From Escherichia phage EC150, in the sequence record ON210137.1: 64,000 bases of DNA; one strand, given 5' to 3'. The notes beneath the pieces were generated by a model. It did not search any database, was not told the DNA's origin, and saw nothing but the letters and a program-made list of their open reading frames with translations. Positions within the stretch are counted from its first letter, which is position 1. Each line of letters begins with the position of its first letter. Made by a program: the position numbers and the translations under genes. This document shows positions 4,520 to 61,376 of this stretch, piece after piece.

Positions 4520-5007
4520 CTAACAAAACGCAACGCATCAATTTTGAAGGTAAAGAATACGAAATAGACGCTCGTGCAAGATTCGTTGCGCGCGATTCTA
4601 ACGGAACCATCTGGGCGTATGAGGGAAAGCCTGCATGGAACGATTGGTGCGGCCAGTGGGGATATGCAATTGGCGATTCACTTTGGTGTAAGCAAATTGG
4701 TGATGGAAAGATGTTCAAAGAGAATAAACCATCATCACGTGATTCATTGAAGGAAGTCGAATCAATCAAAATCCAAGACCAAGCGCCATCGACAGATAAC
4801 CAATACGCAGTCGGGCAACGTGACATCGAGCAACTCGACGAGGGCGGCTATTATACGCGCCACATCTATGCCATGACGCATGAAGGACTTTGCAGCAAGT
4901 CGGACATCGCCGCTGAACTGGCCCATCGTGACTTACAAATCGACCTTCTCAAGATAGAAGTGCAGAACTTACGAAACACCCTGTTAAATACTTGGAGCTT
5001 AAAATGA
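4516..5007 (+). CDS. hypothetical protein
   Basis: 163-aa ORF with ATGA overlap. Motif RFVARDSNGTIWAYEGKP resembles RYVAIDNNGLVHCYSERP in 1360..1683. Confidence 0.55.
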   Translation: MTNKTQRINFEGKEYEIDARARFVARDSNGTIWAYEGKPAWNDWCGQWGYAIGDSLWCKQIGDGKMFKENKPSSRDSLKEVESIKIQDQAPSTDNQYAVGQRDIEQLDEGGYYTRHIYAMTHEGLCSKSDIAAELAHRDLQIDLLKIEVQNLRNTLLNTWSLK

Positions 5008-5429
5008 TACAACGTTACGACCTGACATATGATGTGGTATCAGAAGATTGCTCCATCACTCCCGTTCCAGAGAGTCATGAAGGACGTTTTGTTGCATATG
5101 AGGACTATGCCGCGCTGGAAGCGAAATACAGTGAAGCGCAACGCGAGTTGGTTGCATTACGCTCACAGGTCCGTGATGCATCGGTGCTTGTTAAGCAGTT
5201 GCACGACGTTGTTGCTACTATAGGCGTGGATGATGATGCGCCGAAGGAGGAAGCGTGGACCGTGTGGCTTGGTGGCGCGAATCCGGTGCCTGGGAAGATG
5301 GTTGAGTTTGAATTACTCAACGGTTATAAATCAAAAGAGGCCGTCCCTTCGGATAATTTGAACTGGGGTGCAGTGGCAAGCCCGACTGGCGCAAAGATTG
5401 TTGCTTATCGGGTCGTTAAGGAGGGGTGA
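5004..5429 (+). CDS. hypothetical protein, C-terminal paralog of 3340..3849
   Basis: In-frame ATG 5004 (MIQRYDL...) overlapping the upstream TGA. C-terminus is WTVWLGGANPVPGKMVEFELLNGYKSK...KIVAYRV. Confidence 0.6.
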   Translation: MIQRYDLTYDVVSEDCSITPVPESHEGRFVAYEDYAALEAKYSEAQRELVALRSQVRDASVLVKQLHDVVATIGVDDDAPKEEAWTVWLGGANPVPGKMVEFELLNGYKSKEAVPSDNLNWGAVASPTGAKIVAYRVVKEG

Positions 5430-5962
5430 TGGGCGGCTTTTGGCGTAAAGCTAAATACTCTAAAGACTTGCATTACTTCTTGGATAATGAAGGCATAAGT
5501 ATATGTGGTAGGTACAGAAGGGATAATGAATCAGCGTCGCAAAGTAATAAGGCTGAATGGTTACTCAAGGAAGAATGCAAAGTTTGCCGCAAACGTTTTT
5601 GTGACAAAACTAGCATAACTGATTACATAAAGGAGCTTAGAAAAAGATGTAAAAGCCCGCAAGAGTTTGCCATAGCTCTTTGGGATGATCACCCTGAGTT
5701 GAGAAGCGAATGGTTAAAGACTGATGCAATCAATTATATCTTCAAATCGAAATACAGGACGACAGCAAGATATAAAATGGATGAAGCAGTAATTCAGAAG
5801 GTATTTTCTTATTGGAGGGATACAGTCGATATTGTGAAAATAAAGAAATACCAAAACGAAGTGCTGCTGGAATTGGAGAGGATTGGCTATAAAGTCACCA
5901 ATAAAATGATAAAAGAAGAAATAAAAAGGAGAACGGAAAAGGGACTGATGCCTAAGATATAG
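5426..5962 (+). CDS. hypothetical protein (AT-rich gene, Cys cluster CKVCRKRFC)
   Basis: 178-codon ORF. Start is GTG 5426 or ATG 5429, after GGAGG. Visibly more AT-rich than its neighbours. Confidence 0.5.
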   Translation: MMGGFWRKAKYSKDLHYFLDNEGISICGRYRRDNESASQSNKAEWLLKEECKVCRKRFCDKTSITDYIKELRKRCKSPQEFAIALWDDHPELRSEWLKTDAINYIFKSKYRTTARYKMDEAVIQKVFSYWRDTVDIVKIKKYQNEVLLELERIGYKVTNKMIKEEIKRRTEKGLMPKI

Positions 5963-6204
5963 TGAATAAACGAACACTGTTTACGTGTTTTGAAGAATGG
6001 AATGTGTGCAATGGGTCGCTTTATGCGGCCTTTTGTCGTTTGGGTCGTGTTTTGCGATGGAATAATTATGATGAGGTGTTTTATTTATTGATTGTGCGGA
6101 AATATTTAGAAATATATTTCATAGGTCGTGTCTATTGGTCCGTGGTGTTTGTTAGATTATATCTATGGATTGAAATTTTAGTGTCGTGAAACGTGGTGTT
6201 TGAA

Positions 6205-6660
6205 CACATTTGATACGCCTAAAATACGGCTAAAAATTAAGCGTATCATGGCTGCAGGCCGCGTCGTTCCTGGATTCTTCTTTTTAAAATTGGTACACCC
6301 TTACGTCATGATACGTCATGGTTTTTTATCCGTATCAGTGTACAGCCCTTGCCGCGCCTGGCTTGTACATTAATCTTACGGATGATACGGATAAAACTGG
6401 GCATCGTTATATATAAAACTCCAAAAATAAATAAACTCCATTTTAAAAACATTTATATTAATTTTTTTCATATCCTCATACTTATGTTAATTTATATATT
6501 TAACGTATCATCCGTAAGATATAAGTAAAAACAAAGACTTGCGGCAATACGGATGATACGTCATGATACGCTTCAACCAGCCAGCAGCGGCTAAGTCATT
6601 GATTTGCATAACAAGCGGCGAAAGGGATGGATTTCTTTTATACGTATCAAACAGTACACC
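6205..6660. repeat. iteron-like GGATGATACG arrays in opposed orientation around a 114-bp AT-rich core (module A)
   Basis: GATACG at 6212, 6310, 6384, 6555, 6565. CGTATC at 6242, 6331, 6504, 6653. Perfect 15-bp inverted repeat at 6375-6389 / 6504-6518. Homologous module at 22190-22460. Confidence 0.7.
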
Positions 6661-6717
6661 ACGCACCACGGTCCGCTATTCATTCAGTACTATGATTTGT
6701 GTACGTTTACAGCCAAT

Positions 6718-6746
6718 TTGAACATCAATCTGCACTTGAATATAAT
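6718..6746 (+). promoter_or_regulatory. sigma70-like promoter upstream of 6799..7272
   Basis: TTGAAC (6718-6723), 17-nt spacer, TATAAT (6741-6746). The two ATTTGCACTAT motifs lie in the predicted leader. Confidence 0.5.
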
Positions 6747-6798
6747 GTTCATTCATTGTATAATTCACACTATTAATTTGCACTATGGGATTTGCACT

Positions 6799-7272
6799 AT
6801 GAGTCAAGATTATGTAGCAATGCCTGAAGACTTTGAAGACCCGCGATTTGCAGAGCATAATCAGGCATTATTCGATGAGTTCATTGACCTTGTTATTCAG
6901 GGCCATGACATGCGCGCAGCTTTTGCACTAGTATTTGGCATGGAGGTTGCGACCGATAACTACACTGGCCAGCGAGTCCTCTGCACGCAACGCAATCCGT
7001 ACTACAAGATGCGCTACAAAAAGCGTATGGAAGAGATGCCATTGAAGGAATTGTGGAGCGTAAAGAGTTCCATCCACAATTTAGTGAAGCTTGTGCGTGA
7101 TCCAGAAGTCGCGGCGTCAGCCAAGCTTAATGCCATTCGTGAACTGAATATCATCTACGGCATCACGATGATTGATGAGAATGGCAATAGTAAAATGGGC
7201 CGTTCCATGGACGATTTCTACAAGGATTTTGGAGAGGCAGCCAAAGAGGGTGAGCAATTCTCCCGCCACTAG
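6799..7272 (+). CDS. putative DNA-binding protein, possibly a terminase small subunit
   Basis: In-frame ATG 6799 (MSQDYVAMPED...). The N-terminal extension from 6604 in the track covers the promoter. The layout (helix-rich N-terminus, then ...AKLNAIRELNIIYG) resembles TerS proteins, but this is a weak by-eye call. Confidence 0.45.
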   Translation: MSQDYVAMPEDFEDPRFAEHNQALFDEFIDLVIQGHDMRAAFALVFGMEVATDNYTGQRVLCTQRNPYYKMRYKKRMEEMPLKELWSVKSSIHNLVKLVRDPEVAASAKLNAIRELNIIYGITMIDENGNSKMGRSMDDFYKDFGEAAKEGEQFSRH

Positions 7273-7284
7273 CCAATTTGCACT

Positions 7285-7325
7285 ATAAAACGGCCCTAGA
7301 ACACATTTTCTCCACTTCTAGGGCC
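7285..7325 (-). terminator. rho-independent terminator for the leftward 8692->7387 operon
   Basis: 10-bp stem GGCCCTAGAA / TTCTAGGGCC (7292-7301 / 7316-7325), followed on the minus strand by GTTTTAT. Confidence 0.55.
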
Positions 7326-7386
7326 ATCGGTAATACGACGGGGAAGGTTACAACCATAAACGCGTTAGAAAGTGTATTATTATAAG

Positions 7387-7650
7387 TCATCTTTTAGTCA
7401 CTTTACGTAACAATTTACGACCTTCCGCCGTCCAGTCGAACGACTCCACCAGCAGATTTGCACTATAACCTAAGACGATGCGCCCTTTCTCGTTATCGAC
7501 CCGCCAACAAGTCTCGAATAGCATTCGATTTGCACTATTAACTATCGCCGCAACGCGCGCTGGGTAAGCGCAATTTGCACTATGGTCGTAAAGGGATAAG
7601 GTGCGACCACTTCCGATGGACAACGTAGCGATGAGAATAAGCGTATTCAT
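7387..7650 (-). CDS. hypothetical protein with signal-peptide-like N-terminus
   Basis: 87-aa ORF with GGTGG 3 nt before the ATG and a minus-strand terminator downstream. It carries three in-frame ATTTGCACTAT copies (read as Ser-Ala-Asn), so coding status is uncertain. Confidence 0.4.
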   Translation of the reverse strand: MNTLILIATLSIGSGRTLSLYDHSANCAYPARVAAIVNSANRMLFETCWRVDNEKGRIVLGYSANLLVESFDWTAEGRKLLRKVTKR

Positions 7651-7700
7651 AAGCCACCAATTTGCACTATGAAAAGCGACCCCGAAGGGCCGCCATTCGA

Positions 7701-8327
7701 TTAGATGATCTGGAATGTGTATGACTTGTTGCCGAACTCGAAGTTCAAGCGCCCAGCTTCCTTAAGCTTCATGCGGAAGCGAATGTGCTTGCTATCCGGT
7801 AATCCCAGCGCGATGAAAGCTACGCGGACCGATTTGAACTCGCCTACACCCTCGACCATAACGCCGTTACGGGTGAGACGCTTTTGCGCCACTTCCTTAT
7901 TATCCCAACTTTTTGCAATGCCTTCGCTATTCGAACGGCGATGGGAAGAAGTTCCATTTTGCACTACGCAATTTGCACTATCGTTTAGGCCGCTCTTAAC
8001 GAAGGCTTCATACTCTTCGTCGGTCATCGCGTCGAGTTCTTCCTGAGTCGGCTCAGACTTTTTAACGACCGCACGCGCCTTATGCGTTTTTACATCGCTG
8101 GGCACTTCCTCGCGCGGCTTCGCGTCGGGAATGGGCGATTCGTTGGACGGCTCATCGAGCGCGTTCAAGGACTCGATTAACGCGATTACGCGAGTCTCGG
8201 CGGTCCGGCGGTCCGCGAACTTTTTAATCGGCTTCGAACCGGAATTTGCGTTGTAAAATGCAACGAGGTCGGCGGTCTTAGTTGCGATAACGTCGCCGCT
8301 AGTCGAGAAGCGATTTAAGCTAACCAT
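7701..8327 (-). CDS. hypothetical protein
   Basis: 208-aa ORF with AGGAG 7 nt upstream. Acidic central linker. Contains motif copies at 7956 and 7971 (..DSANCVVQNG..). Confidence 0.6.
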   Translation of the reverse strand: MVSLNRFSTSGDVIATKTADLVAFYNANSGSKPIKKFADRRTAETRVIALIESLNALDEPSNESPIPDAKPREEVPSDVKTHKARAVVKKSEPTQEELDAMTDEEYEAFVKSGLNDSANCVVQNGTSSHRRSNSEGIAKSWDNKEVAQKRLTRNGVMVEGVGEFKSVRVAFIALGLPDSKHIRFRMKLKEAGRLNFEFGNKSYTFQII

Positions 8328-8407
8328 AATAAACTCCTATTTGTTAGGGCGCTAAGCGCGAAAGAATTTTATTAAAGCGCCGCGCACGACGCTCTTAAAA
8401 TCCTCTC

Positions 8408-8692
8408 TTACGCTTCGACGAGGGAGAAGGTTTCAAATTCTTCTTCGCCCATAACGAGTAAAATATTCCCGATTTCGACCGCTTCGAAGAAGTATCCGTT
8501 AACGTTTACTTCGAAGGCTTCGCGGTCCGATTCCGGTAACGCCGCGTAAAGTTTAAAAGCCTCGGCGACCGTTACCCCACCCGCTTCGATAGTTTGGTCT
8601 ACGTTCGCGGCGTAGACTTCGGATAAATTTTGTTTTACGCCGTAGTTCTCGACGATAGCGTTACGGATAGAAGAAACGTTAAGAATAGCCAT
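8408..8692 (-). CDS. small acidic protein, paralog of 9326..9616
   Basis: 94 aa. Shares S.IR.A.VE ... L..VY..NVD.TIE ... V.(V/I)NG..(F/Y)....EIG with 9326..9616. Has its own promoter and a conserved leader. Confidence 0.65.
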   Translation of the reverse strand: MAILNVSSIRNAIVENYGVKQNLSEVYAANVDQTIEAGGVTVAEAFKLYAALPESDREAFEVNVNGYFFEAVEIGNILLVMGEEEFETFSLVEA

Positions 8693-8760
8693 TTTAAACT
8701 CCTAGTTGGGAGAGGCGTTAACGACCTATTCGTTAACTCATCCCGTCCCGATATGAGTAC

Positions 8761-8788
8761 ATTATAATATAGTGTAGAAAAAAGTAAA
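8761..8788 (-). promoter_or_regulatory. sigma70-like promoter (copy 1 of 3)
   Basis: Minus strand reads GTGCTTTACTTTTTTCTACACTATAT-TATAAT. TTTACT (8788-8783), 16-nt spacer, TATAAT (8766-8761). Confidence 0.5.
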
Positions 8789-8832
8789 GCACTTTTTCGA
8801 TAAAAATGCGATAAATTATTTTATCTTTTTCC

Positions 8833-8860
8833 TTTACTTCTTCGTACACTCGCGTATACT
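8833..8860 (+). promoter_or_regulatory. sigma70-like promoter (copy 2 of 3)
   Basis: TTTACT (8833-8838), spacer TCTTCGTACACTCGCG (16 nt), TATACT (8855-8860). Same TTTACTTCTTCGTACACT core as at 9230. Confidence 0.5.
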
Positions 8861-8915
8861 TGTTTATATCGAGACGGGCGATGGCCTTCCTTCTACTAGC
8901 ATCGGGAGTTTTATT

Positions 8916-9218
8916 ATGACTACTTTAATCTCTTCTATCCTTACTTACGACGAAGACCGTTTAACCGTTCGTTCTCTTATCGCCGCCGTTAACGCGGAAC
9001 TAGAATCCACCATCATTAAGGTCCGCGCGGTCGCTTTCGTCGGCCTTTCCTTCGACGATATTAAGTATGCCGAACGTAGCGCCATCCGCTTCGCGAAGAC
9101 CGACGACGAAGCCGTTACCCTTATCGAGACGGTTACGCCGCGCGGCGAAGCGTTAATTATCGTCGAGTATATCGACGTAGAGGGCGATAAGGCTTATAAA
9201 TATTTTATCGCAAAATAA
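8916..9218 (+). CDS. hypothetical small acidic protein
   Basis: 100-aa ORF with GGGAG 8 nt upstream. CpG-rich codon usage like its neighbours. Confidence 0.6.
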   Translation: MTTLISSILTYDEDRLTVRSLIAAVNAELESTIIKVRAVAFVGLSFDDIKYAERSAIRFAKTDDEAVTLIETVTPRGEALIIVEYIDVEGDKAYKYFIAK

Positions 9219-9229
9219 CGAAAAAGTGC

Positions 9230-9258
9230 TTTACTTCTTCGTACACTAAGACTATAAT
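9230..9258 (+). promoter_or_regulatory. sigma70-like promoter (copy 3 of 3)
   Basis: TTTACT (9230-9235), 17-nt spacer, TATAAT (9253-9258). Preceded by CGAAAAAGTGC, as in the minus-strand copy. Confidence 0.55.
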
Positions 9259-9325
9259 GTTTTATATCGAGAGGGGAGAGGAAGCGAATAGGTCGCCTTC
9301 CCGCCCTCCCAACTAGGAGAATATT

Positions 9326-9616
9326 ATGATTACTTTATCCGCTATCCGTTCCGCTCGCGTCGAGACTTCCGAAAACTCTAACGTATTTGGCGAAACCTTA
9401 GAGAGCGTTTATCTCTCTAACGTCGACGCGACTATCGAATCTATTTATGAGCCGATCAACTTCCTCGACCTTTACAAGTATCGCGACGAGGACATCGTAT
9501 CATCCCGCGTAACTATCAACGGCTTCGTCTATACGATTACCGAAATCGGCGGCGAATATATCGCGGTCCCGCAACTCGGCGGCGAAGTAACTTATTTTAA
9601 AATCGTCTCCTTATAA
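9326..9616 (+). CDS. small acidic protein, paralog of 8408..8692
   Basis: 96 aa. Leader carries the CCCAACTAGGAG RBS context and the AATAGGT-loop hairpin (9280-9301), both shared with the 8408..8692 leader. Confidence 0.65.
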   Translation: MITLSAIRSARVETSENSNVFGETLESVYLSNVDATIESIYEPINFLDLYKYRDEDIVSSRVTINGFVYTITEIGGEYIAVPQLGGEVTYFKIVSL

Positions 9617-9635
9617 TACCCTTCCGTTACTAATA

Positions 9636-9662
9636 GGCCGCGCTTAGTCGCGGCTTTTCTTC
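9636..9662 (+). terminator. rho-independent terminator
   Basis: GCCGCG-CTTAGT-CGCGGC (9637-9654) followed by TTTTCTT. Confidence 0.65.
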
Positions 9663-9780
9663 GTCCCTATCCCGATGCGCGTCTACGCGAAAACTCCTTT
9701 ATCCTTCCCTTCGTCGTCGCATAATCTTCTTCGAGATGCTCCTTAGTTCGCATAACAGGTATTACGTTAAATGGAGAACA

Positions 9781-9854
9781 TCGCGTAAGTCCTTGTTTTA
9801 TATAGACACCTATATCGGACCGTTAGGGCGGGTCGCGTAAGTCGTTGTTTTATA
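9781..9854. repeat. 22-bp direct repeat TCGCGTAAGTC(C/G)TTGTTTTATA
   Basis: Copies at 9781-9802 and 9833-9854 (21/22 identical, 52-bp period) in non-coding DNA. Confidence 0.6.
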
Positions 9855-9979
9855 AAGGCGCAAAACTTTCCCTTCGTTCCGAACTAAAACGAGAAATGTG
9901 CCGACCCTTCGCCCGAAAATAGTACGTATGCGAAATTACATGCATCTCGAATAATCCCTCCCGATATTATCCTACACGC

Positions 9980-10042
9980 AATCATTCGCTTTCGAATCAT
10001 TATGCTTCATATTGTTATGCGTCGAATCATTCGCTTTCGAAT
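9980..10042. repeat. 18-bp direct repeat AATCATTCGCTTTCGAAT
   Basis: Exact copies at 9980-9997 and 10025-10042. Each contains the small inverted repeat ATTCG-N4-CGAAT. Confidence 0.6.
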
Positions 10043-10131
10043 TGTAACGCTGGAAACTGTAACGGCGATTGATTATTGCGTTCGTGTGGTTTTTATGGCA
10101 TGGGTCTTTTGGTGCGTTTTGGTACTTGATG

Positions 10132-10245
10132 AAATTTGCAGTACACTAATCAAAATACGACACATTTGGTCCACTAACTTTTCAAAGAAAAAGTCCTAGA
10201 CAGTACCGTACTATTTTGTACCCACAGGAAATTTGCAGTACACTC
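10132..10245. repeat. direct repeat GAAATTTGCAGTACACT
   Basis: Copies near 10131-10147 and 10229-10245. ATTTGCA is shared with the ATTTGCACTAT motif. Confidence 0.5.
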
Positions 10246-10255
10246 CTGCGCGGCA

Positions 10256-10286
10256 GGCAAAACAAAGGGCCGCACTAAGCGACCCA
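10256..10286 (-). terminator. rho-independent terminator for the leftward module
   Basis: Minus strand reads GGGTCGC-TTAGT-GCGGCCC followed by TTTGTTTTG, just downstream of the 10315 stop. Confidence 0.5.
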
Positions 10287-10314
10287 CGATTCACGGTTAA
10301 ATCAGCAACACCCA

Positions 10315-10695
10315 CTATTCGCTCTTATGGGCATCACCAAAGCCATCCGCAATCTGGCTGATCAATGATTCAATGGACACAGTTTTACCAATTGATCGAG
10401 CGGTAATAGCAAGCATATTATCAATCAAACCATGATTGGATGCGTATGGTTCAGGTTTTGAATCATCTTCAGGACAACCAAAAAGCTGGTCGCGCAAACT
10501 TTCGAGAGAACGCTCAACATTTTCCAACTTCTCTTCTAAATCGGATTGGCGACGTAAAACCCATGTCAAGTCACGGTTGCCAACTTCCAATCCATCAGAA
10601 TAGCAAGGTGGAGCGTCAATTTTGTTGCTGGAACCAAAAGCAGTGCCGCTGCCTTTAGTATAAGTATGGCTCATAGAATCATTTTTATTTGACAT
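10315..10695 (-). CDS. hypothetical protein
   Basis: 126-aa ORF. Last gene of the leftward 15388->10315 module. Confidence 0.55.
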   Translation of the reverse strand: MSNKNDSMSHTYTKGSGTAFGSSNKIDAPPCYSDGLEVGNRDLTWVLRRQSDLEEKLENVERSLESLRDQLFGCPEDDSKPEPYASNHGLIDNMLAITARSIGKTVSIESLISQIADGFGDAHKSE

Positions 10696-22189: not shown

Positions 22190-22460
22190 AATGACGTATC
22201 ATCCGTATCAAGTAAGTAGTTGTTTTCAAAAGAATCTTACGGATGATACGGATGATACGCGTTGCCGCGATACTTTATAGGAATTCAAATAAATTAATTT
22301 AAAATTATATATCTAATTTAATTTTATTTTTTTATAAACTCTTATATATGAAAAGTATCCGTATCATCCGTATCATCCGTAGCACACCAGTGATAGCGCG
22401 GCTTATACACCGATACGGATAAAAATACGCCTCATTTTATCCGTATCATCCGTATCACAC
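22190..22460. repeat. iteron-like GGATGATACG arrays in opposed orientation around an AT-rich core (module B)
   Basis: CGTATC at 22195, 22204, 22360, 22369, 22442, 22451. GATACG at 22245, 22254, 22412. Inverted repeat CTTACGGATGATACGGATGATACG (22236-22259) / CGTATCATCCGTATCATCCGTAG (22360-22382). AATCTTACGGATGATACGG is identical to 6373-6390. Confidence 0.7.
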
Positions 22461-36931: not shown

Positions 36932-37660
36932 ATGATGGCAGAAAAGTTAACCCAACTTACAAGCCCCAACCAAACTGACAAATCAAGTATGTTTGCCGCG
37001 CTTCAGGGAATGCTGGACCGTGGCAAGTATACCACTGATGGCATGATTCCTGCGCAAGTAATATCTTATGACCGCAAGAAAAATTTAGCAGTCATAAAAC
37101 CTGTTATTCATTTCGTAAGTCTTGATGATAAGCCAGTGGAGCGTCAACCTTTGGTGTCAATTCCGGTACTGGCAATCGGCGGCGGCGGATTCGTGATCAA
37201 CTTCCCTTTGAAGGAAGGCGACTTGGGCTGGATATTCGCTGGCGACCGCGAGTTGTCGACATTCCTTGAAGAATTGAAGCCGGCCGCGCCTACCAATGGC
37301 CGTGTAAAAACTTTCGCTGATGGACTGTTCATACCGGATGTATTCCGAAAATACACCATAAGCGGAGAGGATGCAGGGTCAATGGTAATTCAATCCCTCA
37401 GCGGCGCTGTGAGAATTGCACTAAGCGATGACTCAATAAACATAATTGCGTCTGCTGGAGTAAACGTCAAGACCCCGATAACCACTATCGATCAACAATT
37501 GATAGTAAATGGAAAGGCAACATTCAATGGTGGGATAGAAGGCAAAGAAGGAACGACGGCAACGCTTCCGACTGGCACAACGGTCGGTGGCATTGATGTA
37601 TCCACTCACGGGCATATCGGTAACGGGCCTGGAAACAGAACTGGGAATATGATAGAATGA
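36932..37660 (+). CDS. baseplate central spike protein (gp138 N-terminal-domain-like)
   Basis: ATG 36932 after AAGGAG. ..IPAQVISYD...AVIKPVI....D.....PLVSIPVL.IGGGGFVINFPLKEGDLGWIFAGDRELS.. matches the OB-fold spike pattern. Confidence 0.6.
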   Translation: MMAEKLTQLTSPNQTDKSSMFAALQGMLDRGKYTTDGMIPAQVISYDRKKNLAVIKPVIHFVSLDDKPVERQPLVSIPVLAIGGGGFVINFPLKEGDLGWIFAGDRELSTFLEELKPAAPTNGRVKTFADGLFIPDVFRKYTISGEDAGSMVIQSLSGAVRIALSDDSINIIASAGVNVKTPITTIDQQLIVNGKATFNGGIEGKEGTTATLPTGTTVGGIDVSTHGHIGNGPGNRTGNMIE

Positions 37661-59192: not shown

Positions 59193-60038
59193 TTATTCCG
59201 CTTGATCACCGTCTTCGGCATCTTCGTTGGATTCAACATCGACAAACTCGATGTGACCCATCTCTTCCAGCTTGCTCAGGTAGGAGCGAACTGAAGCGCC
59301 AAACAGTTGATCTTTAACTTTTTCGCCCAGCTCATCGATAGACTGTGCCACGCCAACTTCGCCTTCTTTGATCGCCGCCAGAACGCGTCCACGGGTGGAA
59401 TGCTCTTGCGGCTGACTCAGGCCATTGCCAGTGTAGATGAAGTGAGTAGCTTTTGCACGACGCTGACCATTGGCCTTTTTGGCAGCCTTACGTTCTGCGA
59501 TGGCTTTGCGACGTTCTTCAGCTTCTTGCTTACGCTGTTCTTTCTGCTGTTCTGCAGCTTCTTTCGCCGCAATCTTAGCAGCTTCACGCTCTGCCTTGCG
59601 TTTCGCTTTGGCTTCTTCTTTGGCCTTCTCTTTTTCGGCCTTCGCTGCAGCACGGGCTTGATCACGCTCTGCTTTCTTAGCAGCAGCTTGTTCAGCTTTC
59701 AGGCGCTTGGCTTCTTCTTTAGCCTTTGCCTTTTCGATTTCTTTCGCTGCTTTAGCGGCTTCACGCTCTGCTTTCTTAGCAGCAGCCTTTTCTGCACGCT
59801 CTTTGGCCTTCTTGGCTGCTTCTTCAGCACGCTTCTGAGCCTTCTCATCAGCAGCCTGCTTGCGTTTCAGGGCAGCTTCTTCACGCTTGGCTTGTTTTTC
59901 CTGCTCACGCTTCTGGCGTTTTTCTTCGGCTTCTTTCTTTTTAGCCAGACGTTTTTCTTCAGCCACGCGACGACGTTCTGCTGCAGCTGCTTGTTTTTCT
60001 TCTTTAGATAATACTTTGATTGCTTCGGCCATGTTCAC
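59193..60038 (-). CDS. K/A/E-rich low-complexity protein with C-terminal winged-helix-like domain
   Basis: 281 aa. About 190 aa are almost pure Lys/Ala/Glu/Arg/Gln (AEEKRLAKKKEAEEKRQKRE...). The C-terminal ~85 aa are globular (..RGRVLAAIKEGEVGVAQSIDELGEKV...VRSYLSKLEEMGHIEF) with an acidic tail. Confidence 0.7.
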   Translation of the reverse strand: MNMAEAIKVLSKEEKQAAAAERRRVAEEKRLAKKKEAEEKRQKREQEKQAKREEAALKRKQAADEKAQKRAEEAAKKAKERAEKAAAKKAEREAAKAAKEIEKAKAKEEAKRLKAEQAAAKKAERDQARAAAKAEKEKAKEEAKAKRKAEREAAKIAAKEAAEQQKEQRKQEAEERRKAIAERKAAKKANGQRRAKATHFIYTGNGLSQPQEHSTRGRVLAAIKEGEVGVAQSIDELGEKVKDQLFGASVRSYLSKLEEMGHIEFVDVESNEDAEDGDQAE

Positions 60039-60191
60039 AGTCCTTAAATAAATTAGTTTATTTTATATTCCCCGTTTGGGATAACTTAATTATGCCTTCA
60101 GTCGCCGCCAGTAGCAACTAAAAACTCTGGCAGCAATGCCACTTTAATTAAACTGATTTTCAGTTTTATTTTTCGTAAATTTACGTCAACA

Positions 60192-61376
60192 TTAACGCGC
60201 TTTCAAATCACGGTACACGGTCAGATTCTTTTTAGCGCGGGTAATAGCGGTGTACATCATCTTTGCATACGGAACGCCGCGCAGGATTTCTTCCAACACG
60301 CACACATTGTCCCACTCGCTGCCTTGCGATTTGTGCACCGTTATGACATAGCCATAGTCCATGCCTCCAACGGCTCGTTGGGCCTCTTTGCGCACTTCCT
60401 GATCAGTAGAGAAGGAAAGAGGATTTATCTTCACCTTTATATCTTTGCCATCGGTAAGCGAGCGCAAGTTGACATACATGATTTCATTAGACTCGTCTTC
60501 ATCCCTTTCAAAGTCCGGCACTGGCTCATAACTAATAACAATCCCTTGCTCGCCATTACAGAATCCTGGACCGTGTTGGTTGAATGTGCAAATAACTTTC
60601 TCTCCGATTCCTGGCATCGGCGTTATACGTCCGCTCACTTGCCGCAATAATGAATTCCATTTATCTTTGGTGCTATTATATGAGCAAATAATTTGATCAT
60701 CTTCGCCCATGAATTTCTTCAACGCAGTAACGCGCGGCGATTCAGCCAACACCTTGACATCATCGTATTCACGCGGAGGAAGTCGGTTGCCCTGTCGCAC
60801 GAAGAAGGAAGCGCGGATGATGTTGGACTCTTTCCCTTGCCGCATGATTTCGGTTAACAGTACGTCAACGGCATCTTCAGTAAAGTAGGCGGCGGCTTTT
60901 ACCGGAGGGACTTGTCCAATGTCGCCTAATGCCAGAACAGGGATGCGGTGATCAAGAAGGCGCTCTGCGTCCCACTCGCCAACCATTGAAGCTTCATCAA
61001 GGACGACAAGATGCGGCCTTTCATCAAGCGTTGACTTCCTTGCAAAGATTGGTTCATTGTCATCGTTAACGCCGCGCACGTTATAGATGAACTGGTGAAG
61101 GGTCTTAGCGCCACGACACCCTTTCTGCTTCAATCGGCTGGCGGCCTTTCCGGTCGGCGCAATATAAATGGCACCGTACTCACCGACACAACGGCGCACA
61201 ATCTCACGCGCAATAGAGGTTTTACCTGTTCCTGCATAGCCAGCGATGAAAAACACGCGCTTCGTTGTTTTGCCGTCCTGCAATCGCTTGTACCATGCAA
61301 CGGCCTTTTCGATGGCGTCAATCTGTTGCGCGTTAAACTGAATCACTGGCTCATCATTAAATTCTGGAATGTTCAT
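60192..61376 (-). CDS. RecD/Dda-like SF1 DNA helicase
   Basis: 394 aa. Walker A GYAGTGKTS, Walker B VVLDEASMV, C-terminal ..ITVHKSQGSEWDNVCVL.. and ..YTAITRAK... Confidence 0.85.
   Translation of the reverse strand: MNIPEFNDEPVIQFNAQQIDAIEKAVAWYKRLQDGKTTKRVFFIAGYAGTGKTSIAREIVRRCVGEYGAIYIAPTGKAASRLKQKGCRGAKTLHQFIYNVRGVNDDNEPIFARKSTLDERPHLVVLDEASMVGEWDAERLLDHRIPVLALGDIGQVPPVKAAAYFTEDAVDVLLTEIMRQGKESNIIRASFFVRQGNRLPPREYDDVKVLAESPRVTALKKFMGEDDQIICSYNSTKDKWNSLLRQVSGRITPMPGIGEKVICTFNQHGPGFCNGEQGIVISYEPVPDFERDEDESNEIMYVNLRSLTDGKDIKVKINPLSFSTDQEVRKEAQRAVGGMDYGYVITVHKSQGSEWDNVCVLEEILRGVPYAKMMYTAITRAKKNLTVYRDLKAR

Follow-up and report, generated by a model that had tools for sequence, protein, structure and literature searches.

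The window analysed here, 64,000 nucleotides of DNA from Escherichia phage EC150 (record ON210137.1), carries ten copies of an 11-bp motif, all on the plus strand, in and beside the gene of the small terminase (terS) and just inside the left end of a long direct terminal repeat. Comparison with related sequences strongly supports this array as a real DNA signal superimposed on the genes. Its best explanation, which we hold tentatively, is a candidate pac/cosB-type region for recognition by the terminase or TerS, overlying the terS promoter as well.

An exact search of the 64 kb found the motif, ATTTGCACTAT, eight times, against an expectation of 0.07, and 0 of 100 shuffled sequences gave eight; no further match exists on either strand, even with one mismatch. 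The 9-mer core TTTGCACTA has ten copies, the eight exact motifs and two variants, all on the plus strand within 6777-7980, so that the array spans ~1.2 kb (6776-7981; Table 1). Elsewhere in the 64 kb, TTGCACTA occurs at 37416 only. These results confirm the eight exact positions of the original prediction, which had been made from the letters of the window and described a same-strand 11-mer array found nowhere else. Its count of nine included the variant TTTTGCACTAC, which is present (at 7957), but overlooked the tenth copy, TTTTGCACTAG, inside terS. Its placement of two copies in the terS leader, the second over the ATG, and of one just past the stop codon agrees with our reading of the sequence.

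The ten aligned copies give (C)(A/G)ATTTGCACTAT, and alignment of the copies with their flanks showed no similarity past ~13 bp. The gaps between copies are irregular (14-355 bp), with no helical period common to the lineages compared below. Six of the ten copies are intragenic and four (6776, 6790, 7276, 7660) intergenic. A peptide repeat was rejected because of these intergenic copies and because the genes that hold the others are found on both strands, with several frames used and positions that are not orthologous. Ser-Ala-Asn is indeed the reading of all four consensus copies within genes, as had been pointed out before, but this shared phase carries little weight as evidence, because one minus-strand frame of the motif has a TAG, leaving two open frames; one distant lineage (L022) uses the other, Ile-Val-Gln.

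The window belongs to Wifcevirus, a genus of E. coli/Shigella myophages, and is 91-97% identical to TH32, Bas100, WFC, Mansfield and ECML-117. The adjacent gene, previously called TerS-like, encodes a true small terminase: its 157-aa product matches PDB 7UXE, the decameric TerS of Pseudomonas phage E217 (E=1.3e-32), and Foldseek with a moderate-confidence AlphaFold model returned 7uxe_A as the top and only significant match. The gene is called a hypothetical protein in nearly all Wifcevirus records (PQ850605, MK373777, MH051335 and others, those of the BASEL collection included), and it lies ~8 kb from terL (15567..), inside the terminal repeat.

In the independent records of Mansfield, WFC and Ro157lw the genome opens at a single base, which lies 360 bp ahead of the terS start codon and corresponds to window position 6440. 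The right boundary of the repeat is at 10109-10112 in Mansfield and Ro157lw or at ~10190 in WFC. A direct terminal repeat of 3,673 bp was predicted for Mansfield by PhageTerm (PMC6753283), and terminal repeats of ~3.7 kb were described for WFC and WFH (PMC6563267). Counted from the left end of the repeat, the array occupies 336-1541 bp; lying within the repeat, it is present at both ends of the virion DNA.

Conservation and turnover of the array

Among Wifcevirus genomes the array is kept, with minor changes. The complete genome of Bas100 (68,486 bp) carries ten copies of the 9-mer, all on the plus strand, all in 59,382-60,577 and nowhere else. Eco4M-7 has one extra copy, and the copy at 7456 is degenerate (ATTCGCACTAT, T-to-C) in WFC, TH32 and Eco4M-7. 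In the ECML-117 subclade (L005-L008) the 7957/7971 pair is lost together with a segment of the 208-aa gene, which is replaced there (ATTTTATCCGC...AACCGGAGTAT). Since this subclade does without the pair, the array, to judge from these genomes, tolerates the loss of two copies. A scan of genome contigs yielded, as its sole outcome, a terS 95% identical to that of the window on an 811-bp contig assigned to Xanthomonas pisi DSM 18956 (NZ_JPLE01000260.1, L150), most likely an assembly contamination.

Five distant metagenomic relatives were found via TerS homologues. Their TerS proteins are 69% (L019), 52% (L022, L149), 50% (L020) and 45% (L021) identical to that of the window, and their terS genes 53-66% at the DNA level; among the six lineages including the window, pairwise terS DNA identity is 51-66%, except for L020/L022 (77%). 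The five have a common synteny, with terS on the plus strand, a gene of ~60-95 aa and one of ~190-210 aa on the minus strand and then, where the contig reaches that far, two plus-strand genes; exceptions are L149, with two short minus-strand open reading frames (ORFs), and L020, with no called small gene. As the original prediction had suggested should be checked, the number and orientation of the motif are kept: the array regions of L019, L020, L022 and L149 hold eight or nine copies of the core TGCACTA, none of them on the minus strand (Table 1), and L021 has ~13 plus-strand copies of a drifted form, AT(C/T)(C/T)G(C/T)ACTA(T/C), with two on the minus strand elsewhere. First-order Markov simulations of four regions (L149 not included) gave ~0.1 core copies per 2 kb, with a maximum of 2.

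The positions of the copies, in turn, are not kept. In the terS alignment the core occupies column 126 in the window and L019, columns 36 and 294 in L020 and L022, 51 in L021, 66 and 219 in L022, 452-457 in L020, L021 and L022, and 493 in L019 and L021. It encodes Phe-Ala-Leu at four non-homologous residues and elsewhere Leu-Ala-Leu or Leu-His-Tyr, and the other lineages differ there. We did not count G[CT]ACTA at terS position 201, which is found in all lineages and merely reflects the codons of a conserved N-P-Y-Y. Because the core occupies non-orthologous positions in terS and alters the encoded amino acids, the constraint has to be sought at the DNA level. On this comparative evidence, selection acts on the DNA, overrides the protein sequence and keeps the number of sites rather than their position; copies appear to come and go while number (8-13), strand and neighbourhood are kept, as expected for a selected DNA signal that alters protein sequence. 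The earlier proposal of a DNA-level signal superimposed on the genes is thus borne out by six lineages with a plus-only array at non-orthologous positions, including positions inside terS. An antisense-RNA-level signal, named as an option at the same time, finds no such backing, as there is neither a consistent promoter element on either strand nor an Rfam match (E<=1) in 6000-10600 on either strand.

The same data bear on the view that the array has no function and arose as a by-product of repeated peptide motifs, through local duplication or by chance. Motif columns evolve no slower than the adjacent sequence among Wifcevirus genomes, and one copy pair is dispensable, which would be compatible with such a view. 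Against it stand the four intergenic copies, the spread of the others over both strands and different frames, flanks that are dissimilar beyond 13 bp, the non-orthologous positions, and 8-13 observed copies with complete strand bias in each of six lineages where ~0.1 are expected. The comparative sequences effectively refute this explanation, to which we give almost no credence.

Outside these lineages a comparable array is missing in Pbunavirus PS44, Serratia phage Hera and Aeromonas phage Gekk3-15, whose TerS proteins are 24-35% identical to that of the window in a multiple alignment. An IMG/VR scan for two nearby cores returned mostly chance matches and was rejected, and the apparent arrays in L026 and L094 proved to be the antisense of Ala/Ser/Thr-rich low-complexity coding repeats.

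Table 1. Motif copies, genes and accompanying elements (positions refer to the window except in rows that name another phage or lineage)
Feature	Coordinates	Strand	Details
Copy 1, exact ATTTGCACTAT	6776..6786	+	terS 5' leader, ~+5 to +15 of predicted transcription start
Copy 2, exact	6790..6800	+	overlaps terS ATG at 6799
Copy 3, variant TTTTGCACTAG	6921..6931	+	inside terS, read Phe-Ala-Leu
Copy 4, exact	7276..7286	+	3 nt past terS stop, just 5' of hairpin terminator ~7291-7330
Copy 5, exact	7456..7466	+	antisense to 87-aa ORF (Y-S-A-N); minus-strand Chi directly before copy
Copy 6, exact	7528..7538	+	antisense to 87-aa ORF (N-S-A-N); position orthologous in L019, L022
Copy 7, exact	7573..7583	+	antisense to 87-aa ORF (H-S-A-N)
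Copy 8, exact	7660..7670	+	intergenic, between minus-strand terminator of 208-aa gene and ribosome-binding site of 87-aa gene
Copy 9, variant TTTTGCACTAC	7957..7967	+	antisense to 208-aa ORF; missing in ECML-117 subclade
Copy 10, exact	7971..7981	+	antisense to 208-aa ORF (D-S-A-N); missing in ECML-117 subclade
Degenerate copy ATTCACACTAT	6763..6773	+	starts in last bases of predicted -10; orthologous to TATAAT-CTGCACTAT of L022, L019
Direct terminal repeat	6440..10112		~3.7 kb; left end at same base in three independent records
Inverted TACGGATGATACG-type repeats flanking AT-rich core with left terminus	6363..6530		candidate cut-site context
terS, 157 aa	6799..7272	+	homologue of Pseudomonas phage E217 small terminase; TerS in Mansfield annotation
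Predicted sigma-70 promoter of terS, TTGAAT-17-TATAAT	6736..6764	+	near-consensus; consensus match only
Second sigma-70 promoter match for terS	6718-6746	+	consensus match only
87-aa ORF	7387..7650	-	hydrophobic, signal-peptide-like N-terminus; kept in relatives; three copies on antisense strand
208-aa ORF	7701..8327	-	phrog_4730, 823 cluster representatives, uncharacterised; kept in relatives; two copies on antisense strand
Chi GCTGGTGG	7446..7453	-	abuts copy 5, sole Chi near terS in the window; orientation read by RecBCD entering at left genome end
Core TGCACTA in array region, L019		+	8 (minus strand 0)
Core TGCACTA in array region, L020		+	9 (minus strand 0)
Core TGCACTA in array region, L022		+	9 (minus strand 0)
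Core TGCACTA in array region, L149		+	8 (minus strand 0)
Chi near terS, L020	323-1824	-	7
Chi near terS, L149	1625-3322	-	7
Chi near terS, L022	411-1836	-	5
Chi near terS, Hera (L012)	4737-5833	-	4 exact, 8 with one mismatch
Chi near terS, L021		-	2
Chi, Gekk3-15		-	2, just upstream of terS
Chi near terS, L013	4530-4542	-	

A candidate TerS recognition region and competing explanations

The sequences show the motif statistics, the single orientation, the place of the array relative to the mapped terminus and a genuine terS, the deep conservation and the turnover of copies; the identity of the binder, the direction of packaging and an autoregulation of terS are inferred. We propose that the array provides cis-acting sites for one sequence-specific protein, each site being the asymmetric 11-bp AT(T/C)TGCACTA(T/C), and that the most likely binder would be the small terminase whose gene the array spans. 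Oligomers of TerS would assemble on the co-oriented sites and direct TerL to a precise cut at 6440, the left boundary of the terminal repeat and ~340 bp upstream, after which packaging would proceed rightward. Through the copies over the terS -10, the leader and the ATG, TerS may limit its own synthesis. As in pac and cosB regions, the sites lie in and beside terS and near a packaged DNA end (terS 6799-7272; terminus 6440; array 6776-7981), and they are repeated short elements conserved among relatives (ten in the window, 8-13 in the five lineages). The original prediction had listed a pac-type array for the TerS-like protein, an operator array and iterons; the first fits best, with a real TerS and a mapped end nearby, the second is possible for the promoter-proximal copies only, and the third fits poorly.

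Three points favour TerS over other binders. Known TerS sites are typically in or beside terS, some of them as short intragenic repeats. Several lineages place a copy on the -10, the start codon or the leader of terS, which fits autoregulation. The third point comes from the surroundings of the left terminus: inverted TACGGATGATACG-type repeats (27-nt arms, 85% complementary) enclose the AT-rich core that contains it. A paralogue of the whole inverted-repeat/AT-rich structure is found at 22236-22385, with 74% mean column identity over an alignment of ~300 nt, in a 560-bp intergenic gap upstream of the head-protease gene; it has no array and is not a terminus. ACGGATGATACG occurs nine times in the window, always in these two inverted-repeat clusters, and the structure is probably a regulator-binding or late-promoter module. 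Since the array-less paralogue is no terminus, the cut-site context alone cannot specify the end and something else has to give specificity. In L019 (4190-8211) the terminus-flanking repeats are a different word, (C)GAACCGTGA(A), with seven on the plus strand and several inverted, and the TGCACTA array is unchanged; therefore, the two motif systems evolve independently.

The copies next to the terS promoter bear on two explanations at once. Copies 1 and 2 of the window are at ~+5 to +29 of the predicted sigma-70 promoter, a near-consensus match, and over the ATG; in L022 and L019 the -10 is fused to the motif (TATAAT-CTGCACTAT), and L019 has three tandem copies before the ATG where the window and L021 have two leader copies. 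An excess of TerS was reported to be harmful in E217 (PMC9611059). By their position, the promoter-proximal copies would fit the autoregulation of such a protein. They would equally suit a set of operators at which a repressor, of the phage or of the host, times terS expression and dampens convergent transcription of terS and the leftward operon. We regard an operator as improbable, however, because it explains the promoter-proximal copies only: most copies are in coding regions, up to 1.2 kb from the sole promoter overlapped, the sites are asymmetric and all co-oriented, and the promoter-proximal position is degenerate in the window (6763), L020 and L149. Moreover, no regulator is annotated, the small proteins of the terminal repeat are either acidic or signal-peptide-like, and no copies exist at other promoters or genes of the 64-kb window or outside the array in Bas100. 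The motif was also rejected as a promoter itself, whether sigma-70 or phage-specific. It has no fixed partner element or consistent -10 on either strand, its flanks are unconserved, and eight of the ten copies face no co-oriented gene (one is inside terS, and seven are downstream, antisense to or between minus-strand genes).

The single orientation of the copies relative to the mapped DNA end also suits a polar, strand-specific signal for DNA-end metabolism, read by an enzyme from the left end or by a nickase, as RecBCD reads Chi, which would control resection, repeat duplication or, in concatemer formation, recombination between the terminal repeats. Like Chi or KOPS, the array keeps its copy number by turnover and not by fixed position. 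Host Chi sites on the minus strand cluster within the 1-2 kb that hold the motif in L020, L149, L022 and L021, and there is one in the window; three metagenomic relatives reach a density of 5-7 per 1.5 kb, against ~0.03 expected per 2 kb per strand by simple arithmetic. Serratia phage Hera, furthermore, has a Chi cluster after terS at the location of the Wifcevirus array, and no recombinase is annotated in the phage. Because of these oriented Chi clusters and the missing annotation, the sequences suggest that Wifcevirus-like phages rely on host RecBCD, Chi and RecA at the terminal repeat. Nevertheless, the motif is unrelated to the host Chi, GCTGGTGG, and we know of no enzyme that reads it. 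The two signals are separable, as the array of L019 has no Chi and the window only one, and a shared place and orientation would also follow from a division of tasks, with Chi protecting the end and the motif serving the terminase. A polar signal leaves unexplained why copies coincide exactly with the promoter and the start codon of terS. A signal of this kind is possible, though unlikely, and it is doubtful that the motif is a phage-specific Chi-like element which, with co-oriented host Chi, channels the long repeat into recombination or duplication. The minus-strand Chi clusters of the relatives have a common direction and indicate a DNA end left of terS; we counted them in favour of the packaging explanation.

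A replication origin or a site of host-factor titration, with iteron-like repeats or weak DnaA-type boxes, appears very unlikely. It draws on the similarity of the motif to the DnaA box TT(A/T)TNCACA, matched 7/9 by ATTTGCACT and 8/9 by TTTTGCACT, on an AT-rich region 300 bp from the array, and on the T5-like phages, in whose long terminal repeat arrays of DnaA boxes are retained (bioRxiv 10.1101/866236); such a role has been proposed for the eight DnaA boxes of T5. Unlike in DnaA boxes, however, G5, T9 and A10 are invariant, with position 9 always T and never A, and positions 4 and 6, which DnaA needs, vary in L021; DnaA boxes were rejected for these reasons. A regular iteron origin was rejected as well, given the irregular gaps without helical phasing, the mostly intragenic copies and the lack of an annotated initiator nearby, the primase, helicase and polymerase genes being located elsewhere. 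Comparison of the motif logo with known consensuses showed that no sigma-54 -12 element, NtrC half-site, marbox or EcoKI site fits the invariant positions and unconserved flanks.

Several observations weigh against TerS recognition as we propose it. For the TerS of E217, a structurally characterised homologue, appreciable DNA binding was not seen in vitro (PMC9611059), and Pbunavirus relatives have a homologous TerS without a comparable array; circularly permuted genomes have been described for Pbunaviruses (PMC12345254). With its span of 1.2 kb and its irregular, unphased gaps, the array would be far less compact than the cosB and pac sites known so far. Between lineages in which the motif is nearly constant, the putative N-terminal helices of TerS vary considerably, and the drift of the motif in L021 is not accompanied by an obvious corresponding change in TerS. 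Among Wifcevirus genomes the motif is not less variable than its surroundings (17/110 against 164/1241 variable columns, p=0.47), a test with little power at 93-98% identity over the stretch and with one copy pair in a replaced segment, and the ECML-117 subclade lacks that pair. Finally, as the array is present at both ends of the virion DNA, a simple rule of recognising the array and cutting upstream needs an extra rule. What probability remains goes to binders or processes outside those considered here.

The right boundary of the terminal repeat has elements of its own. An element GCGTTTTGGTACT...(G)TACAC is invariant across four lineages and begins directly after 10109-10112 (window 10100-10245), and a run of (TC)GAATCATT repeats is located just inside the right boundary (9980-10042), with five also in L021 (3398-3600); both are candidate termination-cut signals. 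Also near this boundary, the related motif variant that the original prediction had tentatively noted at ~10131 and ~10229 (GAAATTTGCAGTACACT at 10131/10228; AAATTTGCAGTACACT at 10132 and 10229) is present, but it was dismissed, as its TTTGCAG part is not conserved in L019, L020 and L021 when these are aligned with the window. In Hera (5509-5650), three copies of a 21-bp repeat with a palindromic core, AAAAAATAAGCATGCTTTGTA, directly follow terS, at the location of the Wifcevirus array.

Neighbouring proteins were also considered as binders of the motif and rejected: the 87-aa protein is signal-peptide-like, those of 94, 96 and 100 aa near the array are acidic, and the 208-aa protein has no Pfam or PDB match (its single-sequence AlphaFold model, with a pLDDT of 37, was unusable). 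The genes for the 94- and 96-aa proteins (8408-8692, minus strand; 9326-9616, plus strand) are divergent and lie inside the terminal repeat. Their products are paralogous and strongly acidic, and their promoter-leader regions are near-duplicates (inverted repeats 8770-8802 / 9216-9248); a role of these genes in early host takeover is probable.

Relation to known packaging signals and significance

In phage P1, pac consists of seven TGATC(A/G) hexamers inside the pacA/terS gene. In lambda, the gpNu1-binding sites R3, R2 and R1 of cosB lie between cosN and the Nu1 gene, and these TerS sites confer specificity on a separate cleavage site. The pac site of P22 is located inside gene 3, and pacL and pacR of SPP1 around gene 1 (PMC9611059). 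The pac regions of P1, P22 and SPP1 resemble the array in that short recognition elements lie in or beside the small-terminase gene, overlap coding sequence and are near the packaging start. However, known pac sites are small, between 22 bp and a few hundred bp, and belong to headful packaging with imprecise ends, whereas the array comprises ten asymmetric, co-oriented 11-mers over 1.2 kb in a phage with exact 3.7-kb terminal repeats. With cosB the array has in common that repeated sites on the packaged side of the cut run into the start of terS. In contrast to the three 16-bp sites and the IHF site of cosB, which occupy ~120 bp in mixed orientation, it starts 336 bp from the cut and continues through and beyond terS with ~10 sites.

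Dunn and Studier are said to have described, in 1983, arrays of short repeats beside the terminal repetition of T7, with a suspected role in concatemer processing. Those, too, are short direct repeats tied to an exact direct terminal repeat, but they are tandem, non-coding and outside a repeat of 160 bp, whereas the array described here is dispersed, partly intragenic and inside a repeat of 3.7 kb. The left terminal repeat of T5 has eight DnaA boxes in the injection-stop region (Davison, bioRxiv 10.1101/866236), and so offers another conserved set of ~8 short boxes inside the long terminal repeat of a virulent coliphage. The T5 boxes, however, are paired in a palindromic arrangement, non-coding and of DnaA consensus, while the motif studied here is co-oriented, irregularly spaced and fails at invariant positions. 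Chi and other polar motifs read by translocases share with the array a strict orientation to the DNA end, the upkeep of density and positional turnover, but the motif differs from Chi in sequence and length (11 bp, not 8) and is confined to one 1.2-kb region instead of being genome-wide. No description of the array was found in the full-text literature on Wifcevirus, on the 11-mer and its complement, or on terminal-repeat recognition.

According to a 2026 review, initiation and termination of packaging are less understood for phages with direct terminal repeats than for cos or headful phages (PMC13595956), and Wifceviruses are now available in the BASEL collection for genetics in E. coli K-12 (PMC11990801). 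If the Chi-like explanation were true, the array would expose how long exact terminal repeats are made and maintained. If it is a TerS recognition region, it would be new in being dispersed, co-oriented, partly intragenic and in serving exact long terminal repeats. The array is a concrete cis-element beside a member of a structurally characterised TerS family, which makes the question of recognition directly testable, and it provides a sequence marker of the left end for the annotation of Wifcevirus-like genomes.

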